DNA of 64,000 bases from NCBI RefSeq assembly GCF_022846255.1, contig NZ_AP025682.1. One strand, written 5' to 3'. Positions 1-62,584 of this stretch are shown in pieces. Origin of the DNA: Escherichia coli. Its GTDB lineage: Bacteria; Pseudomonadota; Gammaproteobacteria; Enterobacterales; Enterobacteriaceae. Every line of letters begins with the position of its first letter. Position 1 is the stretch's first letter. The translations under genes and the position numbers were made by a program. Below the pieces are notes generated by a model. It had not been told where the DNA came from and ran no database searches. It worked only from the letters and a program-made list of their open reading frames with translations.

Positions 1-792
1 AACCTGGACTGGTGGGAGCATTCCGAACGGCGTCAGCGGTTCAAACAGCTTCTGCGCGAACAGGAGCAGATCGATGCCGACGAGGTGATCATGTCGCCAC
101 AGCGGGCACGGGAGCGCGGCCTGACCTCAACGATCACTTTCCCGGTGGGCAATATTGCCCCGGAAGGGTCGGTTATCAAATCCACCGCCATCGATCCCTC
201 GGTGATTGATGATCGGGGCATCTATTACCATAAAGGCGTGGCGAAGGTTTATCTGTCCGAGAAAAGCGCGATTTACGATATCAAGCACGAGAAGATTAAA
301 GCGGGCGATATTCTGGTCATCATCGGCGTTGGCCCTTCCGGCACCGGGATGGAGGAAACCTACCAGGTCACCAGCGCCCTGAAACATCTGTCCTATGGCA
401 AGCATGTTTCACTGATCACCGATGCGCGTTTCTCGGGTGTTTCCACGGGAGCCTGTATCGGCCACACAGGGCCAGAAGCACTGGCCGGAGGGCCAATCGG
501 TAAATTACGCACCGGAGATATTATTGAAATTAAAATTGATTGTCGCGAGCTTCAGGGCGAAGTCAATTTCCTCGGAACCCGTAACGATGAAACATTACCC
601 TCACGGGAGGAGGCCACCGCAATATTAAACGCCCGACCCAGTCATCAGGATTTACTTCCTGATCCTGAACTGCCAGATGATACCCGACTCTGGGCGATGC
701 TCCAGGCGGTAAGCGGCGGGACATGGACGGGTTGTATTTATGATGTAAATAAAATCCGCACGGCCTTGCGCGATTATATGAATAAAAACTGA
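1..792 (+). CDS. Sugar-acid dehydratase, IlvD/EDD family, C-terminal part (5' end lies outside window)
   Basis: Frame 1 is open from base 1 to the stop at 792; translation has the IlvD/EDD C-terminal signature (RFSGVSTGACIGHTGPEALAGGPIGKLRTGDIIEIKID), resembling YjhG/YagF-type xylonate dehydratases. Confidence 0.75.
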   Translation, partial: NLDWWEHSERRQRFKQLLREQEQIDADEVIMSPQRARERGLTSTITFPVGNIAPEGSVIKSTAIDPSVIDDRGIYYHKGVAKVYLSEKSAIYDIKHEKIKAGDILVIIGVGPSGTGMEETYQVTSALKHLSYGKHVSLITDARFSGVSTGACIGHTGPEALAGGPIGKLRTGDIIEIKIDCRELQGEVNFLGTRNDETLPSREEATAILNARPSHQDLLPDPELPDDTRLWAMLQAVSGGTWTGCIYDVNKIRTALRDYMNKN

Positions 793-898
793 AAGCAAAA
801 ATAAAAATATCCAGACGCCTGAATTATCCGGTTACGCATTATTCATCCTGTGCGCAGCCGGATAATGACGGCTCGTTACCCTATAATGAGAGGACGTT

Positions 899-2248
899 AT
901 GCCACTAATTATCGTTGTGGCAGGGATTGCTTTACTCCTGCTTTTAACCATAAAAATTAAGCTTAATACGTTTGTTTCGTTAATTATTGTCTCGATTGCT
1001 GTCGCCATCGCCAGTGGTATGGATTTGAGTAAAGTCGTCACCTCAGTCGAATCCGGACTTGGCGGTACGCTGGGCCATATTGGTTTGATATTTGGCTTCG
1101 GTGTTATGCTCGGTCGCTTGCTGGCCGATGCGGGGGGGGCGCAGCGAATAGCGCTGACCATGCTGAATTATTTCGGGAAAAATAAACTTGACTGGGCAGT
1201 GGTCTGTTCGGCGTTTATTGTCGGTATCGCACTTTTTTTCGAAGTCGGTTTAATTCTTCTGGTACCTATTTTATTCGCTATTGCCCGTGAAGCAAAAATA
1301 TCACCGATGTTTATGTGTGTGCCGATGCTTTCCGGTTTGCTGGTCGCACACGGTTTTTTGCCGCCGCACCCCGGCCCGACAGTAATCGCCAGAGAATATG
1401 GTGCTGATGTAGGATTGGTACTGATATACGGTATCATTGTCGGCATTCCAACCTTTATTCTTTGCGGCCCGGTATTGAATAAATTCTGCCAGCGCATTAT
1501 TCCGGAAGCCTTTAAAAAAGAGGGGAATATAGCCTCTCTCGGCGCGACCCGCCGGTTCAGCGAAAGCGAAATGCCTGGCTTTGGGATCAGTTTTCTCACG
1601 GCAATGCTGCCGGTGATCCTGATGGCGGTTGTCACCATCATCCAGATGACTCATGCCAAAAGTGCCGCGGATTCAGGCTTATTCTACAACGTGCTACTGT
1701 TCTTAGGTAATTCGACGATCGCCATGCTGATTTCACTGCTGTTCGCGATCTATACCATGGGCCTGGGGCGCGGGAAAACAATCCCTGACCTGATGGATTC
1801 TTGCGGAAAAGCTATCGCGGGTATTGCCGGTCTGCTGCTGATTATCGGTGGTGGTGGTGCATTCAAGCAAGTTCTCATCGACTCTGGCGTTGGTCAGTAT
1901 ATTTCCACCCTGGTTTCGGGTATGGATATTAACCCGATCCTGATGGCCTGGGGCGTGGCCGCATTCCTGCGTATTTGTCTGGGTTCAGCCACCGTCGCGG
2001 CGATCTCTACCGCCGGTCTGGTCATCCCATTGTTGGCAGTACATCCCAATACCAACCTGGCCTTGATTACGCTGGCTACCGGTGCCGGATCCTGTATTTG
2101 TTCTCACGTTAACGATGCCAGTTTCTGGATGATTAAAGACTTTTTTGGCCTGACCACCAAAGAAACGCTGTTATCCTGGACGCTGATGTCCACACTCTTA
2201 TCCATCAGTGGGCTGATTTTTATTCTGCTCACCAGCTTAGTTTTATAA
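899..2248 (+). CDS. GntP-family (gluconate/sugar-acid:H+) permease
   Basis: 449-aa polytopic membrane protein with GntP-family sequence character; RBS-like GAGGA upstream of ATG. Confidence 0.85.
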
Positions 2249-2398
2249 TCGGGTTCTTGCCAGTGAGCCAACCTGTTGTTCACTGTCCCCCATAATTTAG
2301 TGAGTGACGGCAACCGTCTGCACGGTGACGAATCGCTGGCGATCAAAAAGGGGCGATATTGAACCGTCGATTATGCTTGTTGAGTGTACTCTCAGTAA

Positions 2399-2435
2399 TA
2401 CTGTAAAGCCGGAGCATGTCTCCGGCTTTACAGTA
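2399..2435. repeat. Perfect 16-bp inverted repeat with 5-nt loop (TACTGTAAAGCCGGAG-catgt-CTCCGGCTTTACAGTA)
   Basis: Read directly from sequence; lies between GntP gene and regulator gene; no T-tract on either side, so not a canonical intrinsic terminator. Confidence 0.6.
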
Positions 2436-2594
2436 TGGGGGAACAGCGGGCGATCGCTCAAATGGTATGCTGGTTTATTTCATGTAAAAGAATAAAATAT
2501 CTGTATAAAATCATGCCACTGGCAATCTGCATCAACTCTCCGGGTAAACAGGGTTAAGATGAGCATTTCCCCGGTTTAATACAGGTATACAAAA

Positions 2595-3581
2595 GTGGAT
2601 AGAGATCAAACAAACAGCAGCCTGTTCAATGATGATCCCGTGCTTCATGCAACATGGCTGTACTATCAGGAAGGCAAAAGCCAGACTGAAGTTGCAGCTA
2701 TCATGGGGGTGTCCCGCGTCACGGTTGTCAAATACCTGCAAACAGCCCGGGAAAATGGACTGGTTCATATCAACCTGGATGTGAATGTCTTTGGCTCTAT
2801 CGACGCTGCTTTGCAAATTCGCGATAAATTCAATCTCCTGAGAGTGATCATCGTGCCGGATGGCGAACATGCCGGAAAACGTGATGATACAAAGCTGATG
2901 CGGACTCGCCTTTCACGTGCCGGTGGCATGTATCTGAATCAGGTGATTGAGAATGGTGATGTGCTGGGGGTTGCCTGGGGAAGAACAATCCATCAGATGA
3001 GCAAAACCATGACGCCGAAGTCATGTAAAAATGTCACCGTTATACAGATGCTCGGTTCCATGCCATCTCAGCCAGACCTGACGATCATTGAATCCTCATC
3101 GCAAATCGCCTACAAGCTTTCAGGCCGTGTCGCTTCGCTGCACGTGCCCGCCGTGGTATCAAGCGCCAGACTGGCCATGGAGTTACAGGCAGAGCCTATT
3201 ATTCGATCGAATTTTGACGTTCTGACTCGCTGTACGAAAGCCTTTTTTGTCGTGGGTAACACGCTTGATGAAAATCCCCTGATTCGGGTGGGCGTGCTGA
3301 ATAAGAAGGAAATGCAGACGTATCGAGATTTAGGCGCAGTAGGTGTCATTTGTGGCCGCTTCTATGACAAGGAAGGGATGCCCGTCGTGGCTGATGTTGA
3401 CCAGCGTATTCTGGGAATCAGTCTGGCTCAGTTAAGGCAGATTGAACGGAAGATCTTTCTTGCTGGTGGCGAAAGAGGCTATGACGCAACGTTGGGTGCC
3501 CTGCTGGGAGGATATGTCACTGACCTGATTGTTGATGAAGGAACGGCAGAGTTTTTGCTGGCGTGTGAATTACCACACTAA
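2595..3581 (+). CDS. SorC/DeoR-family transcriptional regulator (N-terminal HTH, C-terminal sugar-phosphate-binding domain)
   Basis: 328 aa; HTH segment SQTEVAAIMGVSRVTVVKYLQTARENGLV followed by a SorC-type effector domain. Confidence 0.8.
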   Translation: MDRDQTNSSLFNDDPVLHATWLYYQEGKSQTEVAAIMGVSRVTVVKYLQTARENGLVHINLDVNVFGSIDAALQIRDKFNLLRVIIVPDGEHAGKRDDTKLMRTRLSRAGGMYLNQVIENGDVLGVAWGRTIHQMSKTMTPKSCKNVTVIQMLGSMPSQPDLTIIESSSQIAYKLSGRVASLHVPAVVSSARLAMELQAEPIIRSNFDVLTRCTKAFFVVGNTLDENPLIRVGVLNKKEMQTYRDLGAVGVICGRFYDKEGMPVVADVDQRILGISLAQLRQIERKIFLAGGERGYDATLGALLGGYVTDLIVDEGTAEFLLACELPH

Positions 3582-3591
3582 AAGAATGAAC

Positions 3592-3626
3592 TACTGCCCC
3601 ATGTGGATATGGGGCAGGATTTTATT
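3592..3626. terminator. Hairpin between convergent genes (candidate bidirectional terminator)
   Basis: CTGCCCCAT...ATGGGGCAG stem followed by GATTTTATTG; sits between the stop of the regulator (+) and the stop of the transporter (-). Confidence 0.5.
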
Positions 3627-4626
3627 GATTAGCGGCGATAATAAGAACAATACCCACAATGTATGAAATAAACATAGTCAGCAGCAGTTTATTGGTTCCG
3701 GCTGGCGCACTGGCAAATTCTCTCCAGATGAAGACTCCCCAGATCACGGCAATCATTGTGGCACCCTGTCCCAGACCGTAGGAAATGGCATAACCCGCCT
3801 GACCAGACGCAATCAAACTGAATGCCAGACCGACACACCAAATCATACCGCCCAGCCAGCCGCAAACATGATCCCGTAAACTCCCGGAAAAATACATTTT
3901 CCTGTTGACAGGTTCTCCTGAAATAGGCTTTTTCATGACCAGCGTGTTAAGGACAAAGTTCGACAAAAACAGCCCCACGGCAAACAGAACAAGTGCTGAG
4001 TACGGCGTCATCAGACCGCTGGCAGGCTGGCTGAAATTGTCAGACATGGAGTCCGCCAGGAAGCGGAAAAACCATCCCATGATGATACCCGCAAGAATGG
4101 CAGTGATGAGGCCTTTGTTACGGCGAGATTTATCCGCCTCCTGCGTGACACGGCCATAGGCTATCGCGGTAAAAATAATGGCGATCACAACGCAGGCGAC
4201 ACCGAGGAACAGAATGAGCGGATCGCCCTGCGGATTGCCGATATAGGTGGTGATCACACCCAGAGCCAGTGCCAGCCCCACCCCCACAGGAAAAGCTACC
4301 GCCATACCGGCAAGATTAATAGAAGCCACCAGAAGAATATTGGAAATATTGAAGATAATCCCTGCCAGTATTGCCGACATCAGACTACTGTTGCTCGCCT
4401 GCTGAATATCAGGTATAAAGCTGCGACCGGCTTCGCCCATAGAACCCAGAGTGAAGGCAAATAACAAAGAACACAGCAATAATCCAATTGAATAATCCCA
4501 ATAGAATAGAGGGAACTCCCATTTTTTATTACTGACAAGTTTAGTTGTATTCGCCCATGAACCCCAGCAAATCATAGTAATAAAACACATTATTATGGCG
4601 ACAGCATACGATTCCACGATAAACAT
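3622..4626 (-). CDS. Sugar transporter, DMT superfamily (GRP/RhaT/GlcU-like), about 10 TM helices
   Basis: 334-aa hydrophobic protein with two-half internal repeat architecture typical of RhaT/GlcU-type sugar permeases; last gene of the kinase-isomerase-aldolase operon. Confidence 0.7.
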   Translation of the reverse strand: MFIVESYAVAIIMCFITMICWGSWANTTKLVSNKKWEFPLFYWDYSIGLLLCSLLFAFTLGSMGEAGRSFIPDIQQASNSSLMSAILAGIIFNISNILLVASINLAGMAVAFPVGVGLALALGVITTYIGNPQGDPLILFLGVACVVIAIIFTAIAYGRVTQEADKSRRNKGLITAILAGIIMGWFFRFLADSMSDNFSQPASGLMTPYSALVLFAVGLFLSNFVLNTLVMKKPISGEPVNRKMYFSGSLRDHVCGWLGGMIWCVGLAFSLIASGQAGYAISYGLGQGATMIAVIWGVFIWREFASAPAGTNKLLLTMFISYIVGIVLIIAANQ

Positions 4627-4729
4627 AAATAACTCCTTGTGGTAGTTATAATCAATCGTTGTGGACAGAGGGCATAACAGCCATTCCTCGAATGGCTGTT
4701 ATATGTTATTAATTAAAATAAAGCTGTAA

Positions 4730-5371
4730 TTACGCTTTCAAACCATACGTTTTGAATTTTTCAAGAACGATGGTCATTTCGGCTTCAGACAGAACGGGAA
4801 CATCGTGATGTAATCCGCCACATTTGATGTATAAATCAGCCAGCGTCTCAGTTTCACCCGCCAGCCACAACGTCTTTTCCAGCGTGACGTCCATGGCCAG
4901 CATACCGTGGTGCTGCATCAGCAAGGACTTACTTTCTCTGATTCCTTGAGATACACTGTCGGCCAGTTCAGGGCTGCCAAAGGTATAATAGGGAATACAG
5001 GGAATATGATCCGTCCCCGATACCGCCACCATATAATGAATAGCCGGAATTGAATGATTATGTATTGCCACCGCCGTGGAATTCACCGCATGCGTATGTA
5101 TGACAGCATTCAATTCTGGTCTGGCTTTATAACACGCCAGATGAAATAGCCATTCACTTGATGGTATTTTACCCGCTTCAGGTATTCCCTTATCGTCTAC
5201 AAAGACAATCATGTCCGGCGTCATCTTTGAATAAGCGATCCCACTCGGTGTAATCAACATGCCACCGGTATATCTGGCACTCACATTACCTGATGTTCCT
5301 TGATTCAGACCTGACGCATTCATTTCCCGACAAATGGAAATGATATTTTCTGCTAACTTAATCCTTTCCAT
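4730..5371 (-). CDS. Class II (metal-dependent) aldolase, FucA/AraD fold; candidate 5-deoxyribulose-1-P / methylthioribulose-1-P aldolase
   Basis: 213 aa, class II aldolase/adducin-domain size and histidine-rich motifs (HTHAVNSTAVAIHNH); positioned downstream of the MtnA-like isomerase. Confidence 0.8.
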   Translation of the reverse strand: MERIKLAENIISICREMNASGLNQGTSGNVSARYTGGMLITPSGIAYSKMTPDMIVFVDDKGIPEAGKIPSSEWLFHLACYKARPELNAVIHTHAVNSTAVAIHNHSIPAIHYMVAVSGTDHIPCIPYYTFGSPELADSVSQGIRESKSLLMQHHGMLAMDVTLEKTLWLAGETETLADLYIKCGGLHHDVPVLSEAEMTIVLEKFKTYGLKA

Positions 5372-5401
5372 TACTGCTCCTTAACAGAAGTGATCGTCGT
5401 T

Positions 5402-6517
5402 TTAATGCAGCTCGTCCTGGAGTGCTTTACTCTTCAGGTCAGCAAACATATCCGCCAGAGCTGACTTACTGGCAGCACAGACTCCCCGTTCAGTAATGAG
5501 GCCGGTAATGTATCGGGCAGGCGTGACGTCGAAAGCGTAGTTCTCACAACGGGTTCCTTCAGGGGCGGTATTGACCCAGCTCAATTCTCCCTGAGTATTT
5601 ATCCCATAGACATGGGACTGCTCTTTTCCGTCACGTTGCTCAATCGGAATGGTTTTTCCGTCCTCGATAGTCCAGTCAATAGTGGGAGAAGGTAGCGCGA
5701 CGTAGAAGGGAACATGGTTATCATGGGCCGCCAGCGCCTTAAGATAGGTACCAATTTTATTACAGACATCCCCTCTGGCCGTGGTTCGATCGGTCCCCAC
5801 TATACAGAGATCAACGTCACCGTGTTGCATCAGGTGGCCACCCGCATTGTCGGCAATCAGGGTGTGAGGAATACCGTGTGAACCCAGTTCAAATGCCGTG
5901 AGTCCACCCTGATTACGTGGCCGCGTTTCATCCACCCAGACGTGAACAGGGATTCCGTTTTCATGCGCTTTATAGATGGGAGAAAGCGCGGTTCCCCAGT
6001 CTACGGTCGCCAGCCAGCCTGCGTTACAATGTGTCAGGATATTGACCACACTCCCGGCCGATTTTTTCTGGGCTATTTCGCGGATGACTTCTGCACCATG
6101 TAATCCAATTTGTTCGCACAACGCGACATCTTCCTCGGCAATTTCTGCCGCCAGCGCCCAGGCCACATCCTTGCGCTCTGATACACAGAGATCCTTCAGT
6201 GTGGCTATCATCCTGTCGAGAGCCCATTTGAGGTTAATTGCAGTTGGTCGGGTTTTGATAAGAAGGTCATAGTAACGCTGCAGACCTACGTCACTGGCAT
6301 TGTGGTTCATTCCCAGTGCGATACCATATGCCGCAACGACACCAATAAGCGGGGCGCCACGAACCCACATCTCCTGAATAGCCGCAGCGGCCATTTCCGC
6401 AGAGGTAAGCGCCACCACTTCAAACTTAAAAGGCAGCTTAGTCTGATCGATGATCTCTACCGCTTTTCCATCCCCGGAAACCCAGACCGTTCGGTAGTGT
6501 TTACCTTTAATATTCAT
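5402..6517 (-). CDS. mtnA: S-methyl-5-thioribose-1-phosphate isomerase family protein (eIF-2B alpha/beta/delta-like); candidate 5-deoxyribose-1-P isomerase
   Basis: 371 aa; translation shows MtnA/eIF-2B-type isomerase character; stop is 9 bp from the upstream kinase gene. Confidence 0.8.
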
Positions 6518-6526
6518 AATGACCTC

Positions 6527-7786
6527 TTACTTAACCTTCGCAGACTGGATGACGGAGTCCATATTTTTAAACTGGCGGGCATTGACAATAAGATCGCGCG
6601 CCATGGTCAATGCACGTCGTTCACATTCTGCGCGAAGCTCTGTATTTTCAATCTGTTTCAGCTCGGCAACGCCAGCAAAACCAATGATCCGGCGATTCAT
6701 TTCCATGCCGGCATTCACCAGGGAATCTTCAAGCAGCGTGGCAAAAAACTGATCCTGTGCGTCCTCAAGAGCGGCCCTGTTCTGTTGATACATTTCTGTC
6801 GGCCACGCGTCACCCTGTGTTTTGTTGTCCCAGAGCTGGCGGAACTCCCGGGTGAAAACTGACCAGGTGTGGACAATCTGCTGAAGTAGCCATTCCTGAT
6901 AGTCAGCGCGACGTTGCTCATTTGCATCCCACCCAGGGCGTGAGAAGAACGCCAGCAGGAGGTTGCCAATATAGTTGCCGATATCAAACGCCATTGGTCC
7001 CATGAAACCGAACTCCGGATCAATCACTTTGGTATCCGTGTCGGTCACCATGATTGAGCCTGAATGAAGGTCACCATGTAACAATGCCTGCGCTTCTGTC
7101 ATAAATTTGTACTTATAACGCATGGCAACCTGGAGCATCTCTACATCAGCCCAGGCCTTATGGACGGCATCGTCCAGCTCAGGAGAAGTCCAGTTATTCC
7201 GTTCCGCGTTGTAATAGGGCTCTGTGAAGATCAGATCTTCCGTAATTTTGCACAGCTCATGATTCAACGCGAACTCAGCAGTAAGCGCTTTTTTCTGTTC
7301 TGCTGACATGCCAATGTCAGACGTATTAAAGAGAGTCTGTGCTAAAAATCTGCCGATATCTTCAGCTAGCTTAGGGAATTTTTTACCGTTAATCAGTCCC
7401 TTACGCAGAATTACGTGAGGCGTCAAATACTCCATGGCAAACAGTGCCATTTCCGGGTCATAAAAATAGACCTGGGGAATCAGTGTGTGACCCGCGTACT
7501 TGGCTTCCTGACATAAGACGTTGTACTCAAAGCCCGCACGGCTCAGAGATAAAGGCCATCCTTCGCCCCCTGCACGAAGCCAGGGCAGAGCTTGTTTTAC
7601 AATGATGGTTTTATGTGTCCCCTTAACGATAAACACCATGTTCAGGTTTCCGTCCCCCACTTCTGAAACTTTCCACTCTTCTGGTAACCCTCCCGGTTCG
7701 CATGAAGGGGTCAGTCTGGACGAGAGATAACCAGGCAGCGTGTCACATGTCAGCGGCTTGTAACCTGATGGAATTGAATCCGTCAT
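6527..7786 (-). CDS. mtnK: Methylthioribose kinase family protein (MtnK-like); candidate 5-deoxyribose kinase
   Basis: 419 aa with the MtnK/aminoglycoside-kinase-fold catalytic motif HGDLHSGSIM and DPEFGFMGPMAFDIG; first gene of a kinase-isomerase-aldolase-transporter operon. Confidence 0.8.
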   Translation of the reverse strand: MTDSIPSGYKPLTCDTLPGYLSSRLTPSCEPGGLPEEWKVSEVGDGNLNMVFIVKGTHKTIIVKQALPWLRAGGEGWPLSLSRAGFEYNVLCQEAKYAGHTLIPQVYFYDPEMALFAMEYLTPHVILRKGLINGKKFPKLAEDIGRFLAQTLFNTSDIGMSAEQKKALTAEFALNHELCKITEDLIFTEPYYNAERNNWTSPELDDAVHKAWADVEMLQVAMRYKYKFMTEAQALLHGDLHSGSIMVTDTDTKVIDPEFGFMGPMAFDIGNYIGNLLLAFFSRPGWDANEQRRADYQEWLLQQIVHTWSVFTREFRQLWDNKTQGDAWPTEMYQQNRAALEDAQDQFFATLLEDSLVNAGMEMNRRIIGFAGVAELKQIENTELRAECERRALTMARDLIVNARQFKNMDSVIQSAKVK

Positions 7787-7810
7787 AACAGTTCTCCTTA
7801 TCTACACAGA

Positions 7811-7850
7811 ATGATAACTGACTTATCATATGGCAACTATACTTTATCAT
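7811..7850. promoter_or_regulatory. Candidate operator: palindrome ATGATAA-ctgac-TTATCAT plus a third TTATCAT half-site 13 bp away, 25-60 bp upstream of the mtnK-like start
   Basis: Read from sequence at 7811-7829 and 7843-7850, in AT-rich promoter region of the operon. Confidence 0.35.
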
Positions 7851-8291
7851 GTGTAAAGTAATTTGTGATGCATGTAGATTTTTTGAACTGGAGAAAATTA
7901 AAAATAATGTTGTATGGAGTCATGATCTTTACAGGAATTAGTAGGGTGCATTCCTGTTATTTATATAAAATTCATTGTATTACATAAAAATGACGGTGCT
8001 GCGCGGGGAATTGTCTCGGGCAATCTTAGACGAAAGGAAGTATTGAAGTGACAGAATAATCTACATTTTTTATACATGTGTATTTTTCTGTTGTCTTTTG
8101 TTTTTAGCGTATGGTGTTTTTATGCCGATGTCTAATAGACAGATAGATTCGAGGGCCAACAGCCCCATTATCATGATGGAGCAACAGAGGTGAGTCTAAC
8201 GTTTCCGTACTTCTTATCGATCGGCACTAACAATCCTTTGTGATAACGGTATTCCCACACAGAGAAACCCACGTACCTGAATAAAAAAAAG

Positions 8292-8720
8292 ATTACTGGT
8301 GTGGAAATGGGATTAACAGATTATGCCATCAAATCGGATGGTAATGAGGTCAATAATCCTCGTCATCTCATTAACGTCAACTGTAATCTGCGACGCAAAT
8401 TAGCCAGCATGATGAATAATAAACACAATCTGGCAAGAGCGTTAGGTGATGCTGATTGGCACGGCTTTATCAACAAACTGGAGTACAAGGCAGCCGAAAA
8501 AGGCGTTCATCTGGTAAAAATCGACCAGTAGTTTGTCTGTTCGAAAAGCTGCTATTGTTGTGGTTACAAAATGTTGCTTCAAAAACGGATCTGGCGATGC
8601 CCTGAATGCGGTGTTGAACATGACCGGGATATAAATGCGGCAATCAACATAAAACTTAAAGACATACAGGAATTAAAGGCGGCGGGCCCCGTCGTCTCTG
8701 TCTATGGAGGAGCTGCGTAA
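8292..8720 (+). pseudogene. IS200/IS605-family TnpB (RNA-guided nuclease) remnant: C-terminal fragment with internal frameshift/deletion
   Basis: Translation ITGVEMGLTDYAIKSDG...ARALGDADWHGFINKLEYKAAEKGVHLVKID matches the TnpB RuvC region; the zinc-finger segment RCPECGVEHDRDINAAINI follows in another frame; N-terminal ~200 aa absent. Confidence 0.6.
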
Positions 8721-8984
8721 ACCCGTCGTACAGACGGTTGCAGCCTGAAAAGTGGGAAGGCCTTGCCCGATTGGGCGGGGAGTAGTCACCCTTGGAGTCA
8801 TTTTTATCCGGTGTATTAATATGCTCCTAATAGTTAATCTGGTTATAATATTTTTTTTTTGATTATGATCACGAAAATATCTCGGTTTTTATTTGCAAAA
8901 CTTGAAACGTGAATCCAAAAAAGATAAATATTTGTCCGCAGTGACTTCTTTTCTGTTGAAAAGTTCAATCTAAAGGGCAAAAAA

Positions 8985-10097: not shown

Positions 10098-10253
10098 TTT
10101 TGGTAGGTAAGAATATGCGGGAAGGGAGTGATGTCACTGCCCGCATATAGGTGGCACCCTCATGCCACCTTTGAAGAGGCAATTTTATTGCCTCTTCTCA
10201 ATTTAACTTCATGTTATTTATTACCCTTTTATTGATTTGAAACTCTATTGTTG

Positions 10254-22036: not shown

Positions 22037-22609
22037 AGAGAATGGGTATTGTATTCAATTAGTTTAGGAGCTTAAGCTATCGGGGGTAATGCTGATTTAT
22101 TGGCAGTTGTGTACGTATTAGCGCTGCTTTTGCCGTAATACCCAGTAGTTCTTTCCAGCATAACTACAACTGAATGATACCAAAAATACATCTCAAGCTT
22201 TTTATCTTAGTCTTTCTATGATGACAATATTGAAAACTTCAGGATAATTAAAAGGTTAGTATTAATGAAAGTCCTTACATTTAAGCATCTTCTCTCTAAA
22301 CATATTTTCCTTAGAATCGGGGGCCTCAGTATTTAAAATCTTCCAGAGGTGTAATATTCAGCTTTGCTGTGACAACATCGAGAATGGTAAAAATTGATAA
22401 TATATCCTCTGAATATCAGGATGACTACGTTATAATGTATATGAGTTGGATTTGATTAGTTTCAAGGAAAGTGAAATGTGTGAAATAAGTACCAGACCAG
22501 TAGAACAGTAATTAAATACCGGAAAGCAAAGGGGGGAGGGGCGTGCTGACTGCATCTAAAATGAGACTATTACGCCCAGACATAGAGGGAAATAGCCAGT
22601 AGAGTACTT

Positions 22610-23386
22610 TTATTTGTTGGGGGGGGCCTGCTGATCCGTTTCACCAGTTGAGTTTGCAGCTGGAAGTTCTTTTGTCTTTGCTGTATCAATTGATTTGATT
22701 TGTTCGATGGCAGTTATATTACCTGACATTGCTTCATTGAGCACTTCTACTGCCCTACGGGCATCACGATCCTTGATCGACATGTAGACCTTGATATGAG
22801 CTTCCACACTCTCTAGGGTGATACCTAGCGCACGGTTAAGCTCTTCAAGATAGTAGTAATAGATGTCTTTAATCGAGTTCATCACGTTATAGAACACGCT
22901 GTTGTGTGATGCTCTGACTATTGCCAGATGGAACTCGTAATCCGCTTCCGAATACTTTTTGTAGTCCCCCTTATTGATCAACATATTATTCAGAGCTTCT
23001 TCGAGCTGGCGAATGTCGTCGTCGGTGGCGTGAGTGACAGCGAGTTCCACGCATTTGAACTCCACGGTCTGACGGAAAATCATCATATCGTGAAACTCTT
23101 CGCGGCTAAGGTGCATGATAGGACGTGGATCGTTACTCAACATTTGCGGGGTGAAGTTTGTGCTCACGTAGCTGCCACAGCCCTGACGTGTCACAACAAT
23201 CCCCAAGGTGCGAAAGCGCTGAACCGCACTACGTACACTGACCCGGCTTACATTAAATGAGTTGGCCAGCTCTAATTCTGAGGGCAAACGGCTACCTGGT
23301 GGCCAGCTGCCGTCCAGCAGTTTTCCACTTATTTGATCATAAACTTCATTTACAACATTCTGTTTCTGAATGGATTTTATGCTCAA
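22610..23386 (-). CDS. GntR-family regulator (FadR subfamily, FCD effector domain)
   Basis: 258 aa; N-terminal GntR winged HTH (LPSELELANSFNVSRVSVRSAVQRFRTLGIVVTRQGCGSYV); C-terminal codons include an 8-nt homopolymer. Confidence 0.85.
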   Translation of the reverse strand: MSIKSIQKQNVVNEVYDQISGKLLDGSWPPGSRLPSELELANSFNVSRVSVRSAVQRFRTLGIVVTRQGCGSYVSTNFTPQMLSNDPRPIMHLSREEFHDMMIFRQTVEFKCVELAVTHATDDDIRQLEEALNNMLINKGDYKKYSEADYEFHLAIVRASHNSVFYNVMNSIKDIYYYYLEELNRALGITLESVEAHIKVYMSIKDRDARRAVEVLNEAMSGNITAIEQIKSIDTAKTKELPAANSTGETDQQAPPNK

Positions 23387-23464
23387 GATGGGGTCCGAAG
23401 TCAGTTTAGATAAGCCAATAATATATCATCTTTAAAATCAAAGCGCCCAAGTGGGCGCCCTATA

Positions 23465-24751
23465 TTAACAAGTTTGTGCTTTTGCTTCAGTGGATTTTTT
23501 AGTGCTAAACGAGGTGAGTGAGGTGAGCAACACTGCCACAACCAGCGAAGCACTCATAAAGACATAAGAAGCACCTGGATCGCCCGTTAATCCATTCAGA
23601 TAACCGACAATCCATGAACCAACGAATGAGCCCAGAGCACCGAAACTTACGATAAATGCCATCGCACCAGCCATCACATTACGAGGGATAATTTCTGGTA
23701 TTGCGGCAAAGAATGGTCCGTAAGGTGTATACATCGCGCCACCTGCAACCATCAACAGGATATACGAGAGCCAAAAGTTGGATTCTCCAACGGTAAACGA
23801 ACCAATAAAGCAGAACGCACCCAATCCTAAAAACAGAAGAACAATGATTTTACGGTTCATAAATTTATCTGAATACCAAGACGCGCCGAGCATAAGTGAT
23901 ACAGCTAATAAGTAGGGTGCTGCTGATAGCCAACCTATTGCTACGATGCTTAATTCAGATGCTGATTTCAAAATAGACGGTAGCCACATAATAAATCCAT
24001 ACATCCCAATATTCCAGAAGAAGTGGATAAATGAGAGTGATAAGACTTTGCCTGAACGAAATGCTTCGCTGTAGTTTTTAATTTCTTTAATATTGGTTTG
24101 CTCTGCCGCAAGTGCCGCTTCTATATCTTTTTTTTCGTGCTCTGTTAACCAGGTTGCATCTGTGGGGCGATCAACAAAGACAAACCACCAGATAACTGCC
24201 CAAATGATGGCAGGGATGCCTTCGATAATAAACATACCACGCCAGCCAAAGGAGTCCACGAGATAGCCTGATAGCACTGACATCCAGAGTACTGTTATGG
24301 GGTTGCCAAGAAAAAGGAAGGTGTTAGCTTTCGACCTTTCTTTCTTAGTGAACCAATGGCTCAGGAAAACAAGCATGGCAGGCATCACAACGCTTTCAGC
24401 CACGCCGAGTAAGAAGCGAATGACCGCTAGGACCTTAACGTCGTGGACCATGCCGGTCGCTGTCGCTAGTATTCCCCACAGAATTAAGCTCCAAAAAATA
24501 AGCTTCTTGGCACTTCTTTTTTCAGCATAAATCCCTCCAGGTACCTGAAAGAAAAAATATCCAAGGAAGAACAGTGCACCCAGTAGTGAGGAAATCCCTG
24601 GTGTAATATTGAGATCCTCAGCCAGACCGGAGGCAGCACCAAAGCCATAATTAGCGCGATCAAGATAGGCAAGGCTATACGTAATAAATGCCAGCGGGAT
24701 CAACTTACGCCAGCGAATCGGCGCTAATTTTTTATGTATATTCTGAACCAT
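23465..24751 (-). CDS. MFS transporter, anion:cation symporter (ACS) family (hexuronate/aldonate-type, ExuT/DgoT-like)
   Basis: 428 aa; N-terminal region LAFITYSLAYLDRANYGFGAASGLAEDLNITPGISSLLGALFFLGYFFFQVPGG typical of ACS-family sugar-acid permeases. Confidence 0.8.
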   Translation of the reverse strand: MVQNIHKKLAPIRWRKLIPLAFITYSLAYLDRANYGFGAASGLAEDLNITPGISSLLGALFFLGYFFFQVPGGIYAEKRSAKKLIFWSLILWGILATATGMVHDVKVLAVIRFLLGVAESVVMPAMLVFLSHWFTKKERSKANTFLFLGNPITVLWMSVLSGYLVDSFGWRGMFIIEGIPAIIWAVIWWFVFVDRPTDATWLTEHEKKDIEAALAAEQTNIKEIKNYSEAFRSGKVLSLSFIHFFWNIGMYGFIMWLPSILKSASELSIVAIGWLSAAPYLLAVSLMLGASWYSDKFMNRKIIVLLFLGLGAFCFIGSFTVGESNFWLSYILLMVAGGAMYTPYGPFFAAIPEIIPRNVMAGAMAFIVSFGALGSFVGSWIVGYLNGLTGDPGASYVFMSASLVVAVLLTSLTSFSTKKSTEAKAQTC

Positions 24752-24806
24752 GATGTTTTCCCATTTAATTACTGCAGTTCGTATAACGAATGTCAGTAGA
24801 TGTTAA

Positions 24807-25574
24807 TTACAGCACCGCGAGCCACCCACCATCAACGTAAATAATTTGTCCATTGATATAATCTGATGCTTTGGATGATAAGAAGATGGCAGTTCCGATG
24901 AGTTCCTCTGGATGTCCCCAACGTTGGGACGGGTTGCTGTTTTTCACCCAAGAATCGAAGTGTTTGTCTTCGATAAGCGCAGTGTTCATGTCGGTGAGAA
25001 TGTAGCCCGGTCCAATGGCATTGGTCTGAATATTAAACTGTGCCCATTCTGCGGCCATTGAACAGGTAAGCATTTTGATGCCGCCTTTTGCTGCCGTGTA
25101 TGGAGCAACTGTTGGACGTGCGGCCTGGCTAGTGAGTGAACCGATATTAATGATTTTGCCACCGCGTTTATGGTCAATCATCCGCTTTGCCGCCGCGCGG
25201 GACACGAGAAATGCACTAGTTAAGTTCGTGTCGATCACCTTCTGCCAGTTTTCCAACTCCAGTTCAACCATCGGTTTGCGGTACTGAATACCAGCGTTAT
25301 TAATCAGGATATCAATACTGATCCCTTGCGCATCAAGTTGACTAAAAGCTGATTCAATCGCTTGTTCATTGGTGACGTCAAAAGCCACACCGTGCGCATC
25401 GTAACCCTTGCTTGTCAGAGACTTTACTGCTTCTGCCAGCAACGTGTCGCGAATATCATTCAGGATGACTCGAGCACCCGCAACGGCAAGTCCCTCTGCA
25501 TAGGCAAGGCCCAGTCCACGTGCTGCACCTGTTACCAACGCCGTTTTCCCCGTTAAATCAAATAAAGCGTTCAT
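24807..25574 (-). CDS. SDR-family oxidoreductase, gluconate 5-dehydrogenase (IdnO/Gno)-like
   Basis: 255 aa; TGAARGLG cofactor motif, catalytic YTAAK, high similarity in pattern to IdnO/KduD-type dehydrogenases. Confidence 0.85.
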   Translation of the reverse strand: MNALFDLTGKTALVTGAARGLGLAYAEGLAVAGARVILNDIRDTLLAEAVKSLTSKGYDAHGVAFDVTNEQAIESAFSQLDAQGISIDILINNAGIQYRKPMVELELENWQKVIDTNLTSAFLVSRAAAKRMIDHKRGGKIINIGSLTSQAARPTVAPYTAAKGGIKMLTCSMAAEWAQFNIQTNAIGPGYILTDMNTALIEDKHFDSWVKNSNPSQRWGHPEELIGTAIFLSSKASDYINGQIIYVDGGWLAVL

Positions 25575-25909
25575 ATTGTTTCCTCATGCATTTGTGTTGT
25601 ATGACAACTACCTTTTAAAAGGTAGGGGGTTCGCTACGACAAAAGCAACAATGTGCCCATGAATTTGCAACATGGATCACAAATAGCTTTGTGCAATGAT
25701 TGATGGTCTTATTTAATTTATTGAATTATATGGTGTAATATTTATATTGATGAGCATGGTTTGATCACTGTCACAGAATGGCGTTCGCAACGATCACTTG
25801 CAAATGAAGCGTGATATAACAATGTTGGTTGTAGGACAACCTACATGTTGTGTTGTTCATAACGATATGGATATGGCATACGAGAAAATTACTGAGCTGA
25901 GGTGTAAAA

Positions 25910-27163
25910 GTGAGTAGCCTGAAAATAACTAACGTGAAGACGATTCTGACGGCACCAGGCGGCATTGATTTAGCGGTCGTGAAAGTCGAGACCAACGAGC
26001 CAGGACTATACGGGTTGGGATGTGCAACATTTACTCAGCGTATCTTTGCAGTAAAAAGCGCAATCGATGAATACATGGCACCTTTCCTGATTGGGAAAGA
26101 TCCTACTCGTATTGAAGATATCTGGCAGTCGGGTGCGGTGAGTGGCTACTGGCGTAGTGGTCCCATTATGAACAATGCGTTGTCTGGTGTGGACATGGCA
26201 CTGTGGGATATCAAAGGTAAACTGGCGGGGATGCCGGTTTATGACTTGCTGGGTGGCAAATGCCGTGATGGTATCCCACTATACTGTCATACCGACGGTA
26301 GCGATGAAGTTGAAGTAGAAGATAACATCCGTGCCAGAATGGAAGAGGGTTACCAGTATGTTCGCTGCCAGATGGGCATGTACGGCGGCGCGGGGACTGA
26401 TGACCTTAAACTGATCGCTACGCAGTTGGCGCGAGCGAAGAACATTCAGCCGAAGCGTTCGCCCCGCAGCAAAACGCCCGGTATCTACTTTGATCCGGAT
26501 GCCTACGCCAAAAGCGTTCCACGTTTGTTTGATCACCTGCGTAACAAGCTGGGATTTGGCATTGAATTTATTCATGATGTGCACGAGCGTGTCACCCCTG
26601 TGACCGCTGTTAACCTGGCTAAAACGCTCGAACAATATCAGCTGTTTTATCTTGAAGATCCGGTGGCACCTGAAAACATCGACTGGTTGAAAATGCTGCG
26701 TCAGCAGTCTTCCACTCCGATATCCATGGGTGAACTGTTTGTAAATGTGAATGAGTGGAAACCGCTCATCGACAATAAACTCATCGACTACATTCGCTGC
26801 CACGTGAGTACTATTGGTGGCATTACACCGGCGAAAAAACTTGCGGTCTACAGCGAGTTGAACGGTGTGCGAACCGCATGGCATGGGCCGGGCGATATTT
26901 CTCCGGTCGGGGTCTGCGCTAATATGCATCTGGACTTGAGTTCACCGAACTTTGGTATTCAGGAATACACGCCAATGAACGACGCGCTGCGTGATGTATT
27001 TCCGGGCTGCCCTGAGATTGACCGCGGTTATGCCTATCTGAACGAGAAGCCGGGTCTGGGGATTGAGATTGATGAAGCTAAAGCGGCAAAATACCCGTGT
27101 GAGGGTGGGATACCGTCGTGGACGATGGCGCGTACACCTGACGGTACTGCCTCAAGACCATAA
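25910..27163 (+). CDS. Enolase-superfamily sugar-acid dehydratase, D-mannonate dehydratase (ManD)/RspA-like
   Basis: 417 aa from GTG start with AGGTG RBS; mandelate racemase/muconate-lactonizing-enzyme fold character (MALWDIKGKLAGMPVYDLLGG). Confidence 0.8.
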   Translation: MSSLKITNVKTILTAPGGIDLAVVKVETNEPGLYGLGCATFTQRIFAVKSAIDEYMAPFLIGKDPTRIEDIWQSGAVSGYWRSGPIMNNALSGVDMALWDIKGKLAGMPVYDLLGGKCRDGIPLYCHTDGSDEVEVEDNIRARMEEGYQYVRCQMGMYGGAGTDDLKLIATQLARAKNIQPKRSPRSKTPGIYFDPDAYAKSVPRLFDHLRNKLGFGIEFIHDVHERVTPVTAVNLAKTLEQYQLFYLEDPVAPENIDWLKMLRQQSSTPISMGELFVNVNEWKPLIDNKLIDYIRCHVSTIGGITPAKKLAVYSELNGVRTAWHGPGDISPVGVCANMHLDLSSPNFGIQEYTPMNDALRDVFPGCPEIDRGYAYLNEKPGLGIEIDEAKAAKYPCEGGIPSWTMARTPDGTASRP

Positions 27164-27534
27164 GTAATGAAGGGCCCGGTTTGCAGTTGCCGGGTCTGTC
27201 TCCTGTTCCCAGAGTTTTATTTATCTTCATCACTTACAGAGAATGCTCAACATTTGCTAGTCTTTTCCTGTCCAGGTATCCAAAGTCTCCTCCCAAATAT
27301 CCTGGATACTGGCTTAGACAAAATGAGATTATATTTTATAGTAAATTATATCATAACAGCTTTTGTTAAGGATGCTGTGTAAGATAAGATATATGGGTTA
27401 GAGGCATATTCTTTTGCAATCAGGAAGAAGATAATCACTGATGTTATCGGATATGTAGTAGTATTCGGTATAGCTATTTAGAGAAATTTGTGCCACAATT
27501 TATTATAGAGTTTAAAGAAAAATATATTGAAAAT

Positions 27535-27560
27535 AAAATCCGGGCTATTGCCCGGATTTT
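27535..27560. terminator. Hairpin terminator just past the integrase stop (T-rich on both strands)
   Basis: AAAATCCGGGC-tatt-GCCCGGATTTT, flanked by T-runs. Confidence 0.6.
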
Positions 27561-27561
27561 A

Positions 27562-28824
27562 TTATTTTAATGGATTATTAATCTTTGCATATTCAAATGG
27601 ACTGATAAATCTTTCTCTATTTGCATCCAGAAAATCGGCCCACCATTGTAGCATCAGTCGACGTTCTTCCAGATGTTCTGCTTTATGAATGTAAGCAGCA
27701 CGTACACCATTACGCTCCTGATGGCTCATCTGACGTTCCACAGCATCGCGGGACCACAAACCTGATTCAATCAATGCACTGCACGCCATCGCCCGGAATC
27801 CATGGCCACAGACTTCCTGGGTTGTGTCATATCCCATAACCCTCAGGGCTTTATTTACGGTATTTTCGCTGATTGGTTTACGTGGGTCATGTGCCCCCGT
27901 AAAGATCAGACCATTTTCACCAGCCCATGTCTGAAGTTCTGTCAGTATGGCTACAGCCTGTTTGCTGAGTGGCACAAGATGTGGTGTTCGCATCTTGGAG
28001 CCTCGGTGTGAGAATTTTACGCCTGGCAGAGGTTCGCGTTCGGCTGGAATAGTCCACATGGCATTGTCAATATCAATTTCAGACCAGCGGGCATATCTGA
28101 GTTCACTGGAACGAATAAAAACCAGTAAATTCAGCATAACTGCCCGTCGGGTGACAGGCTGGCCTTTATAACCGCCAATACGCGACAGAAGTTCAGGCAG
28201 ACGTGAAAGATCCAGAGCTGGGCGATGCTGGCGTTTTACCGTAGTCAATGCACCAGCCATATCCAGAGCCGGGTTATATCTGATGATGCCAGACTGTACG
28301 GCATAACGCATTACAGCAGATATTCTTTGCTGCAGACGACTGGCGATTTCATAAATTTGTTTAGCTTCTGCAGCACGAACAGGGATAAGCAGGTCCGGGG
28401 TACTGAGTGTTGTGATATCCCGGTTGCCGATAAAGGGGAATACGTGTGTCTCGAGGCTTTTGAGTACTTTATCGCTGTGTGATTGTGCCCATTGTTTATT
28501 ACTGGCATGCCAGCGTCGTGCAATATGTTCAAAAGAGAGCTGTAAATCAGGGACTACTTTTTTAGCTCTTTTCTGTTCGCAAGGGTCAATCCCCTCCGAA
28601 ATCAGTTTTCGGGCCTCATCCCGTTTTGTACGAGCTTCGGAGAGAGAAACTTCTGGATACACACCAAGTGCCAGAGTCTTCTCCTTACCCAGAATACGAT
28701 AACGGAGACGCCAGTAACGGGAACCATTAGGATGAACCAGCAGGAACATGCCGGCCCCGTCAGTGAGTTTATAAGCCTTGTCAGTGGGCTTTGCAGCCCG
28801 GATTTTTGCGTCAGTCAGCGCCAT
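27562..28824 (-). CDS. int: Tyrosine recombinase, P4-type integrase (island integrase)
   Basis: 420 aa, MALTDAKIRAAKPTDKAYKLTDGAGMFLLVHPNGSRYWRLRYR... N-terminal arm-binding region typical of P4-like integrases; start lies 198 bp from the tRNA-Phe 3' end. Confidence 0.9.
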   Translation of the reverse strand: MALTDAKIRAAKPTDKAYKLTDGAGMFLLVHPNGSRYWRLRYRILGKEKTLALGVYPEVSLSEARTKRDEARKLISEGIDPCEQKRAKKVVPDLQLSFEHIARRWHASNKQWAQSHSDKVLKSLETHVFPFIGNRDITTLSTPDLLIPVRAAEAKQIYEIASRLQQRISAVMRYAVQSGIIRYNPALDMAGALTTVKRQHRPALDLSRLPELLSRIGGYKGQPVTRRAVMLNLLVFIRSSELRYARWSEIDIDNAMWTIPAEREPLPGVKFSHRGSKMRTPHLVPLSKQAVAILTELQTWAGENGLIFTGAHDPRKPISENTVNKALRVMGYDTTQEVCGHGFRAMACSALIESGLWSRDAVERQMSHQERNGVRAAYIHKAEHLEERRLMLQWWADFLDANRERFISPFEYAKINNPLK

Positions 28825-28980
28825 AGTTCAGCCTTCTGAATGCGTTAAAGAGGGTACAAATTCTGTCGAACTGGGGTATACCCGCAATTATACCCACACA
28901 ATGGGGTTGATGTGGGGGGAATCTGGTTGAGTTCGGTAGAATTGATTTGTAGGTAGAACGCTTAAATTGTGGCGTTCTGA

Positions 28981-29010
28981 AACGAAAAACGGACCTCCGT
29001 GGAGGTCCGT
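28981..29010 (-). terminator. Rho-independent terminator of tRNA-Phe
   Basis: On minus strand GGACCTCC-ac-GGAGGTCC followed by GTTTTTCGTT. Confidence 0.7.
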
Positions 29011-29021
29011 TGATATGAATT

Positions 29022-29097
29022 TGGTGCCCGGACTCGGAATCGAACCAAGGACACGGGGATTTTCAATCCCCTGCTCTACCGACTGAGCTATCCGGGC
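29022..29097 (-). tRNA. pheV: tRNA-Phe (GAA anticodon)
   Basis: Reverse complement reads GCCCGGATAGCTCAGTCGGTAGAGCAGGGGATTGAAAATCCCCGTGTCCTTGGTTCGATTCCGAGTCCGGGCACCA, the canonical E. coli tRNA-Phe. Confidence 0.95.
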
Positions 29098-29202
29098 AAC
29101 GGGGCGCATTAAACCTGATTCGCCTCGTCTCGTCAATCAAATTTCTTCAATTTAGTGCAGACTGCACAATCTATCATCACTTTGCCGCTATTGCACGCAT
29201 TG

Positions 29203-60630: not shown

Positions 60631-60828
60631 GGGCCGCAAATGCGGCCCTTCAGATTGTTGGCAAAGTGCGCGTTGTTTATGCCGGATGCGGCGTGAACGC
60701 CTTATCCGTCCTACAAGATTTTGCAAATTCAACATATTGCAGGAAGTATGTAGGCCTGATAAGCGTAGCGCATCAGGCAGTTTTGTCTTTGCTATCAGTC
60801 TCAAGGGCCGCGAAAGCGGCCCTTTTTT
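60631..60828. repeat. tktA terminator hairpin plus REP/BIME cluster and a second terminator-like hairpin
   Basis: GGGCCGCAAATGCGGCCC hairpin, REP units GCCGGATGCGGCGTGAACGCCTTATCCG..., then GGGCCGCGAAAGCGGCCCTTTTTTT. Confidence 0.8.
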
Positions 60829-62557: not shown

Positions 62558-62584
62558 TTACTCTCTCCTCTACAGGATAATATT

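Follow-up and report, generated by a model that had tools for sequence, protein, structure and literature searches.

The stretch of DNA analysed here, referred to below as the window, comprises 64,000 nt of the Escherichia coli chromosome, and its left part is a genomic island inserted at the phenylalanine tRNA gene pheV; all coordinates are window positions. The island is anchored by the three features listed next, and its tRNA-Phe(GAA) gene is the single tRNA gene that ARAGORN predicts in the 64 kb.

29022-29097, minus strand: tRNA-Phe(GAA) gene pheV, whose 3′ end is the attachment (att) site (ARAGORN; the Rfam tRNA match concurs)
27562-28824, minus strand: intP4, a P4-type tyrosine integrase of 420 aa (Pfam domains; NCBIfam PRK09692; catalytic residues in the translation)
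27540-29021: conserved integrase cassette, including a hairpin and T-run just 3′ of the tRNA (hairpin read from the sequence)

The initial annotation, made from the sequence alone, had described a P4-type integrase gene about 200 bp from the 3′ end of tRNA-Phe, and this is what we find: the gene starts 197 bp from that end, and its Pfam domains follow the order Arm-DNA-bind_3, Phage_int_M and Phage_integrase, with E-values of 7e-30 to 3e-16. The catalytic R, HxxR and Y are readable in the translation (in RSSELR, HGFR and AAY), and the gene appears intact as far as its sequence tells. On the opposite side of the tRNA lie yqgA, speC, nupG, mltC and mutY, and because of this flank the tRNA gene is pheV and not its twin pheU. 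Alignment to K-12 shows homology from position 29014 onward, which places the proximal border of the island at 29013/29014. In K-12, yghD follows pheV after 148 bp, and no part of the K-12 yghD-glcD stretch was found by alignment in window 1-29013; thus the insertion lies directly 3′ of pheV and replaces the K-12 pheV-yghD junction, and the earlier statement that the integrase side is unlike the K-12 pheV neighbourhood is correct.

The DNA of the window was searched against 5,426 complete E. coli genomes, which form the comparison set throughout. The integrase gene is 95.3-97.3% identical in nucleotides, and its product 98.1-98.6% identical in amino acids, to the counterparts in the strains Santai, GTEN_97, CH4784 and 4600. 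The match to other tRNA-Phe islands spans 27540-29145, ending 22 bp beyond the integrase stop codon, and the hairpin and T-run fall within this cassette that tRNA-Phe islands have in common. Integrase-side homology is contiguous with the pheV core flank in about 54% of the complete genomes (2,946/5,426). P4-family integrases recombine the attP of a circular element with the last 19-23 nt of a tRNA gene and so restore the tRNA; satellite phage P4 and the CP4-type cryptic elements are the source of this integrase family. An assignment of the integrase to one of the cargo blocks was tried and given up as uninformative, its allele being about 97% identical to those of all relatives and no closer to that of CH4784, which has the adjacent cargo in common with the window, than to that of GTEN_97, which has the distal cargo in common. 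Judged by sequence comparison, islands at this site keep the integrase as their conserved anchor gene, and it is not tied to the present cargo.

Window 1-29013 is accessory DNA. None of the 5,426 complete genomes covers 80% of window 1-25000, so that the possibility raised in the initial annotation, namely that the same gene content occupies pheV in most E. coli, is not borne out, while the core stretch 29098-50000 is covered by 5,403 genomes with a top identity of 99.3%. The GC content is 45.3% for 1-29021 versus 51.3% for the core at 29098-64000, and 1-kb windows of the island and the core differ accordingly (Mann-Whitney p = 3e-12). The five top matches of the core flank 29098-50000 are the wild-mammal strains A36, A20 and A24 together with one human and one canine strain, and the source lineage appears thinly represented among the complete genomes. 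The core itself also contains an AT-rich patch at 60828-63973 (43-44% GC), which holds an SPFH/HflC-like open reading frame (ORF) of 302 aa (60828-61736, minus strand) adjoining mannitol phosphotransferase system genes of the cmtB/cmtA type.

These properties make the island a member of the genomic islands at pheV (GI-pheV), since the site, the integrase and the modularity all satisfy the published definition. In this class intP4 is the sole conserved gene, its copies being over 94% identical in 98% of genomes, and the cargo is modular and separated by insertion sequences (IS), with 19- or 23-bp repeats found in 66% of the islands (PMC11537424). The island described here lies directly at the pheV site, the nucleotide identity of its intP4 next to the tRNA (95.3-97.3%) is above 94%, and ISEc16, an IS629-like remnant and an IS3 element mark the limits of its blocks; lower GC is likewise common to both, and relatives of the island have the imperfect att repeat that is listed for several strains in that paper. 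The cargo is where the difference lies. The modules described for GI-pheV are shiF-iuc-sat, nan, flu and yee (PMC11537424), none of which is in the 29 kb, which carries catabolic and transport modules instead; the word 'metabol' is absent from the text of that paper, and the exact arrangement in the window is absent from the 5,426 complete genomes. The wider kind of island includes PAI V of strain 536, PAI I of CFT073, the she island (SHI-1) of Shigella flexneri and OI-122.

Based on these observations and on the block structure set out below, we propose to read window 1-29013 as the tRNA-proximal portion of a GI-pheV-type island, in which exchangeable cargo has been joined stepwise onto a conserved integrase cassette, a reading to which we give a probability of roughly 0.85. 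The cargo falls into an 18.3-kb distal block and a 9.5-kb tRNA-proximal unit, linked by an IS3-family element. The distal block, which includes the operon of the dihydroxyacetone phosphate (DHAP) shunt, contains the following features (MFS, major facilitator superfamily).

1-792, plus strand: yjhG (xylonate dehydratase), the 3′ 40% of the gene, cut by the window edge (NCBIfam TIGR03432, profile positions 387-639 of 640)
899-2248, plus strand: yjhF, GntP-family permease (NCBIfam TIGR00791, 652 bits)
2595-3581, plus strand: yjhU/mtnR, SorC/DeoR-type repressor of the DHAP-shunt operon (NCBIfam; annotation of a near-identical copy; PMC12632272)
3622-7786, minus strand: DHAP-shunt operon, with a promoter region that reaches 8235
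3622-4626, minus strand: GRP-family permease of the DHAP-shunt operon
4730-5371, minus strand: ald2, class II aldolase (361 bits, NCBIfam cut-off 264)
5402-6517, minus strand: mtnA (463 bits, NCBIfam cut-off 271)
6527-7786, minus strand: mtnK (521 bits, NCBIfam cut-off 275)
8230-8748, plus strand: TnpB pseudogene remnant of IS200/IS605 type (annotation of a 99.8% identical copy)
8797-10321, plus strand: porin cassette of the phage-borne NmpC/Lc type, coding sequence 8985-10097 (P7 nmpC homology; NCBIfam OmpC subfamily)
10321-11564, minus strand: ISEc16 of the IS3 family, 1244 bp (39-nt inverted repeats; annotation; homology to NB4833 ends at its right end)
11834-13024, minus strand: MFS transporter, gene overlapping pepT (NCBIfam)
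13021-14274, minus strand: peptidase T (tripeptidase) paralogue (NCBIfam NF009920, 456 bits, cut-off 293)
14666-14768: about 100 bp of IS3-family (IS629/IS1203-like) sequence between the pepT and nhaC sub-blocks (matched by thousands of records)
14984-15117: psiE pseudogene (annotation of a near-identical copy)
15192-16643, minus strand: NhaC-family transporter (NCBIfam TIGR00931, 593 bits, cut-off 370)
16636-17814, minus strand: PatB/MalY-family C-S lyase (NCBIfam TIGR04350, 370 bits, cut-off 340; limits taken from the RefSeq annotation of a 99.8% identical copy)
18198-18287, plus strand: fragment of a phosphoethanolamine-transferase gene, 90 bp, cut off by the IS3 element (alignment to strain 4600; annotation of GTEN_97 and Santai)

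The most distal part of this block is related to an island at another tRNA gene, leuX. In PK8275, a strain of extraintestinal pathogenic E. coli (ExPEC), the leuX island ends distally in a segment that is collinear with window 1-8235 at 95.7% identity, in the order sgc-yjhIHGFU-permease-ald2-mtnA-mtnK. On this sequence comparison, the left third of the island DNA is a displaced copy of the yjh/DHAP-shunt region of the leuX island: the same genes in the same order are present, and the 449 bp upstream of mtnK are kept, within which both mapped promoters lie by their published coordinates, whereas the sgc part is truncated in the relatives of the window island. The DHAP-shunt gene set is complete, with all four genes and mtnR intact in the order described. 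About 1,078 genomes have the operon, with about 97% DNA identity to the copy in the window, and only 13 records have this particular variant at 99% identity or more.

In the DHAP shunt, MtnK, MtnA and Ald2 turn 5-deoxyribose or methylthioribose, which the core Pfs nucleosidase supplies, into DHAP and an aldehyde, and this allows E. coli to grow on 5′-deoxynucleosides (PMC10986504). Because of its about 97% identity to the widespread operon, the window operon likely has the same function, and growth on 5′-deoxyadenosine, methylthioadenosine or 5-deoxyribose would be predicted from its sequence; for the leuX copy, growth on 5′-deoxynucleosides has been shown. Its location is where it departs from the published description. 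Published accounts locate the operon 'invariably' at the leuX island's end (PMC10986504, PMC12632272), and here it lies in a pheV island, 21 kb from pheV; in GTEN_97 the operon is about 14 kb from tRNA-Phe. Its regulation has been studied as well: mtnR has been identified with yjhU, and the operon is repressed by MtnR and activated by CRP, with a CAAAT-N-ATTTG semi-palindrome over the -10 element of promoter P1 proposed as a possible MtnR site (PMC12632272). The exact CAAAT-N-ATTTG pattern was not found upstream of mtnK in the window. By alignment, the semi-palindrome at 7843-7860 (minus strand) reads CAAATTACTTTACACATG, that is CAAAT...ACATG with a mutated right half, and the leuX copy of PK8275 has it unaltered; over the last 230 bp upstream of mtnK the window and the leuX copy are about 90% identical overall.

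Downstream of the TnpB remnant, in which the motif RCPECGVEHDRDINAAINI falls within the ORF 8571-8720, lies the porin cassette. The porin is 97.3% identical in protein to NmpC of the phage-plasmid P7 (95.2% in DNA over window 8797-10321) and 60% identical to OmpC of K-12, and the cassette has about 94% DNA identity to the phages JL22 and phi456. The porins of lambdoid phages have about 82% protein identity to it. In P7, a member of the P1 family of phage-plasmids, the gene is located between odaA and ssb, and the left end of ISEc16 is the precise limit of the stretch common to P7 and the window; the window cassette, in contrast, sits between the TnpB remnant and ISEc16 and has neither structural nor lysis genes of a phage near it. 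By these identities the window porin counts as one of the phage-borne NmpC/Lc type, and a phage-borne-type gene is seen, on sequence, to circulate between phage-plasmids and a tRNA island. We would also raise a speculative and, in our judgement, unlikely proposal, in which the yjh/DHAP segment together with the P7-type porin forms a portable nutrient-scavenging package on tRNA-Phe islands and would be spreading growth on 5′-deoxynucleosides, so far deemed an ExPEC trait linked to leuX, to other lineages that include duck, mink and chicken strains.

Beyond the right end of ISEc16 the distal block changes its relations. Homology to NB4833, at 98.1% identity over window 1-11564, stops at that end, and the nhaC-patB sub-block 14666-18233 is 99.4% identical in strain 751 of sequence type 131 (ST131), where it resides in a different island beside an IS3 copy. 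In that strain (NZ_CP103562.1, 4645523-4667191) the psiE pseudogene, nhaC and patB adjoin IS3, a TetR gene and a choline trimethylamine-lyase microcompartment cluster. Nine complete genomes have the whole of window 1-18287 at 99.8% identity, namely Santai, GTEN_97, two mink strains, one chicken-farm strain and four human strains.

The tRNA-proximal unit and the element that links it to the distal block contain the features below.

18288-19545, minus strand: IS3-family element, ISEc31-like (91-92% identity), about 1.26 kb (blastn; terminal inverted repeats; NCBIfam IS3 transposase)
19668-20001: degenerate IS3-family remnant (77% match to IS3-family transposase genes)
20050-21270, minus strand: CynX/NimT-like MFS transporter (NCBIfam; DNA and protein searches)
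21386-22036, plus strand: TetR-family regulator (NCBIfam; junction sequences)
22610-23386, minus strand: GntR/FadR-family regulator (NCBIfam; same annotation in CH4784)
23465-24751, minus strand: MFS transporter resembling the D-galactonate transporter family (NCBIfam TIGR00893)
24807-25574, minus strand: short-chain dehydrogenase/reductase (SDR) oxidoreductase, resembling gluconate-5 or 2-keto-3-deoxygluconate-5 (KDG-5) dehydrogenases (NCBIfam)
25910-27163, plus strand: ManD/D-galactonate-dehydratase-family enzyme of the enolase superfamily, putative sugar-acid dehydratase (NCBIfam NF043051 and NF011654, both below their cut-offs)

An Rfam match to isrC, a family of Hfq-binding small RNAs, lies at 19355-19477 (minus strand, 135 bits) within the orfA region of the IS3 element; it is IS sequence and not an independent small RNA gene. 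Apart from the tRNA, this IS-internal match was the only one in the Rfam scan of the window.

The tRNA-proximal unit is rare in E. coli. Window 22022-29145 is 98.8% identical in CH4784, which is the only complete E. coli genome of the comparison set with this unit and has it at pheU, and for 19546-22021 (CynX-MFS and TetR) the 5,426 genomes give no DNA match except that to the IS3 remnant at 77%. The exact CynX protein was found by protein search only in assemblies of sequencing runs (a cluster of 24 members, all from Logan), and an independent contig of 2,392 bp is 99.7% identical to 19828-22219, ending short of the IS3 element. The pheV locus of GCA_037034325.1 matches positions 19990-23458 and 24814-27965 at 90-92% identity, and there the order ManD-SDR-MFS-(zinc alcohol dehydrogenase)-GntR-TetR-CynX stands between a decayed integrase and glcB. 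This assembly, labelled Shigella flexneri, probably represents a non-coli Escherichia, because its flanks are just 86% (yqgA) and 94% (glc operon) identical to those of K-12; at its pheV locus (contig ABQONE010000030.1, 1-21209) the gsp, sslE and glcA genes are absent.

Because GntR, TetR and CynX are contiguous in GCA_037034325.1, the stretch from 19.5 to 29.0 kb is one unit. A module boundary at 22021/22022, where the homology to CH4784 starts, was considered and dropped, as GCA_037034325.1 is contiguous across this point; by comparison of the sequences, the break at 22022 is a deletion or replacement specific to CH4784. The last five codons of the TetR gene and its stop (22022-22036) lie in the sequence common to CH4784, and in CH4784 (fetched locus, 11420-12007) the same point abuts a 5′-truncated second integrase gene, so that the breakpoint has been used in two contexts.

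The presence of the tRNA-proximal unit in this divergent genome bears on a different history, in which two unrelated elements abut, one an old and decaying 9.5-kb pheV islet inherited largely vertically and the other a fragment of a large tRNA-Phe island recombined through IS3, so that the integrase never moved most of the cargo. The unit does stand at the same site and in the same order, with a decayed integrase, in the divergent Escherichia, and its 90-92% identity there is close to the 86-94% of the core flanks; moreover, in nine genomes the distal block is linked to another proximal segment, consisting of a phosphoethanolamine-transferase pseudogene followed by an integrase, and no target duplication flanks the IS3 at the join. 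The finding of the unit in just one of the 5,426 complete E. coli genomes, and there at pheU, speaks against plain vertical descent within the species. The two-element history also refines, more than it opposes, a modular GI-pheV island, such islands being modular by definition with intP4 as their only conserved gene (PMC11537424). We regard it as possible but doubtful, and prefer stepwise joining of exchangeable cargo onto the conserved cassette.

A further alternative is a single integration of a ready-made element, whose mosaic composition would then reflect earlier hosts. Nine genomes from different hosts have the 18.3-kb block in one piece at 99.8% identity, so that it travels ready-assembled, and the island of one relative, GTEN_97, has both att sites. 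In none of these nine genomes, however, is the distal block joined to the ManD/TetR unit, and the window integrase is about 97% identical to theirs as against 99.8% for the block; with a join made by an IS3 copy that has no target duplication, and the same 29 kb in no other of the complete genomes, we consider integration in one step very improbable, and stepwise assembly of the GI-pheV-type island accounts better for the joins.

The IS elements and the composition of the blocks point in the same direction. Target-site duplications were not found around ISEc16 or around the IS3 element at 18288-19545, both of which have inverted repeats. The blocks end where IS elements end, and they differ from one another in the genomes that carry them. 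Since block ends are IS ends, target duplications are missing and the blocks are distributed separately, the stepwise assembly that the initial annotation had suggested is upheld; IS copies of this kind would be expected of recombination joints rather than of simple insertions. The patchiness in GC on which that annotation had drawn is likewise evident, with the AT-rich 11.8-21.3 kb at 42.4% and 0.9-7.8 kb at 48.8%, although 22.6-27.2 kb, described as near core-like, is intermediate at 46.4%. By block, the GC content is 49-50% in the yjh/DHAP part, 44% in the porin, 40% in pepT/MFS, 43% in nhaC/patB, 40% in CynX/TetR, 46% from GntR to ManD and 52-54% in the two IS copies. The island has been joined from at least five gene blocks that turn up elsewhere in differing contexts.

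As to how the joining might have proceeded, the integrase cassette 27540-29021 would stay as the anchor while the distal cargo is exchanged. The blocks would most likely be exchanged by homologous recombination, with the integrase/tRNA region and the IS3-family copies serving as arms. In the present order the 9.5-kb tRNA-proximal unit, composed of the sugar-acid module and the TetR/CynX-MFS pair, is joined across IS3 to the 18.3-kb block, which elsewhere resides in tRNA-Phe islands of the 80-kb class.

Because the join 18287/IS3/19546 is unseen in other complete genomes, it is attested by this assembly alone, and a chimera of the assembly across the 1.26-kb IS3 or the 1.24-kb ISEc16 has to be weighed. 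In its favour, the join 18287/19546 is absent from the other complete genomes and the sole independent contig, of 2,392 bp, ends before IS3. The ISEc16 join, on the other side, is confirmed in nine complete genomes, and a degenerate IS3 remnant (19668-20001) lies beside the element, so that IS3-family sequence was already at the spot. The phosphoethanolamine-transferase fragment at 18198-18287 normally adjoins intP4, and therefore the distal block belongs at the tRNA-Phe site in this orientation, on account of which an assembly error at the IS3 join is unlikely; that the arrangement as a whole is such a chimera we hold to be extremely improbable.

The far border of the island lies outside the window. 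Searches for a second copy of the tRNA-Phe 3′ end used three repeat forms, TTCGATTCCGAGTCCGG-CACCA, TTTCATTCCGATTCCGGGCACCA and the 19-mer ATTCCGAGTCCGGGCACCA, the first of which is the imperfect 22/23-nt attR listed for H10407, ED1a and 55989 (PMC11537424). With the 23-mer, the 19-mer and the 22-nt variant with a one-base deletion, at up to three mismatches, none was found in the window except in the tRNA itself, as had been noted before, and a general repeat search of 1-30000 gave just two short direct repeats that are probably due to chance. With yjhG cut at the window edge and the att repeat absent from the window, the island continues past position 1, again as first proposed.

The closest relative, GTEN_97 (NZ_CP113493.1), offers a view of what such an island may contain farther out. 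The 23-mer and 19-mer searches found no distal repeat in this genome, and the search with the deletion variant found the imperfect repeat TTCGATTCCGAGTCCGG-CACCA at 835302-835323, direct to the tRNA at 917836-917911. The GTEN_97 island is thus 82.5 kb long, with the repeat 61 kb beyond the point that matches window position 1. Outward of the 18.3-kb block it carries yjhH, yjhI, sgcR, truncated sgc genes and a dcuC/amidohydrolase/LysR module, and further out a gene annotated as enterotoxin, malX/malY, a citrate-lyase/acnB module, other remnants and a CP4-like module with Ag43; outside the repeat are the K5 capsule cluster and yghD. By analogy, the relatives may indicate the content of the part beyond position 1, without proving it. 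In the GTEN_97 region 790000-930708 the distal island flank is that of pheV (glc-sslE-gsp-yghD-kps) and the tRNA-proximal flank that of pheU (dicD-dsbD-cutA-dcuA-aspA), and these mixed flanks therefore point to an inversion of the chromosome across the origin region, with its ends in the oppositely oriented pheV and pheU loci. In Santai (NZ_CP007592.1; fetched locus, 36200-36218) a 19-nt tRNA-Phe fragment, ATTCCGAGTCCGGGCACCA, with no tRNA lies just past the integrase, with a second CP4-like island behind it; because this fragment directly follows integrase-proximal sequence, Santai has tandem islands with an internal att site.

Several observations weigh against the proposed reading or limit its detail. 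The join 18287/IS3/19546 has no counterpart in another complete genome; the integrase alleles, about 97% identical to those of all relatives, do not reveal from which cargo block the integrase came; and the size of the island, its att repeat and its nature as a single element or a tandem array are read by analogy from relatives, the distal end being outside the window. None of the ManD-like, SDR, MFS and CynX proteins reaches its NCBIfam equivalog cut-off. The regulation of the DHAP operon may differ from that of the operon studied, because the proposed MtnR operator is altered in the window copy.

The functions of the cargo, as read from family membership, are those of nutrient use. The ManD-like, SDR, MFS and GntR set probably degrades a sugar acid; pepT and its MFS partner would probably take up and cleave tripeptides; NhaC and PatB probably import and cleave an S-linked amino acid; and the porin is probably an extra outer-membrane channel. 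The initial view of the cargo as transport and catabolism genes plus IS elements agrees with the NCBIfam assignments, which give transporters, catabolic enzymes, regulators and IS elements. It had also been stated that no virulence, phage or defence genes are visible. For virulence this stands within the window, no virulence determinants being found among the genes of 1-29021, and for defence it stands for the ten cargo proteins scanned, which gave no PADLOC matches; it does not quite stand for phage genes, given the P7-type nmpC porin. The part of the island beyond position 1 may, by analogy with relatives that carry Ag43 and the enterotoxin-annotated gene, qualify as a pathogenicity island.

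Compared with phage P4 and the CP4-type elements, the integrase domain order and the integration at a tRNA 3′ end are alike, but P4 replication, capsid-size and regulatory genes and a CP4-like yee/flu module are absent from the window, such modules being found only in the distal parts of the relatives' islands. No relaxase, oriT, type IV secretion system or excisionase, as would mark an integrative and conjugative or a mobilisable element, was found among the window ORFs of at least 100 aa and the small ORFs of the gaps inspected, and the small ORFs in the gaps at 27.1-27.6, 14.3-15.2 and 7.8-9.0 kb include no excisionase-like or otherwise recognisable gene. The window sequence thus gives no sign of self-transmissibility, with att repeat, excisionase and transfer genes not found there. 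Functionally, the island would be a fitness (metabolic) island.

In conclusion, what is unusual in this island is that its visible cargo is wholly metabolic, that its arrangement is unique among the complete genomes, and that a DHAP segment lies in a tRNA-Phe island. Discussion of GI-pheV islands usually centres on the virulence traits that they carry, and the window shows that a nearly wholly metabolic and transport load is possible. It also provides a second chromosomal home for the DHAP-shunt operon, contrary to the 'invariably' leuX location in the literature. Furthermore, it is a clean example of island rebuilding, in which the integrase cassette is kept and blocks from another tRNA island, a P1-family phage-plasmid and other tRNA-Phe islands are joined at IS3-family elements. 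The current understanding of genomic islands is unchanged by it, and its main use lies in annotation and in studies of the distribution of the DHAP shunt.

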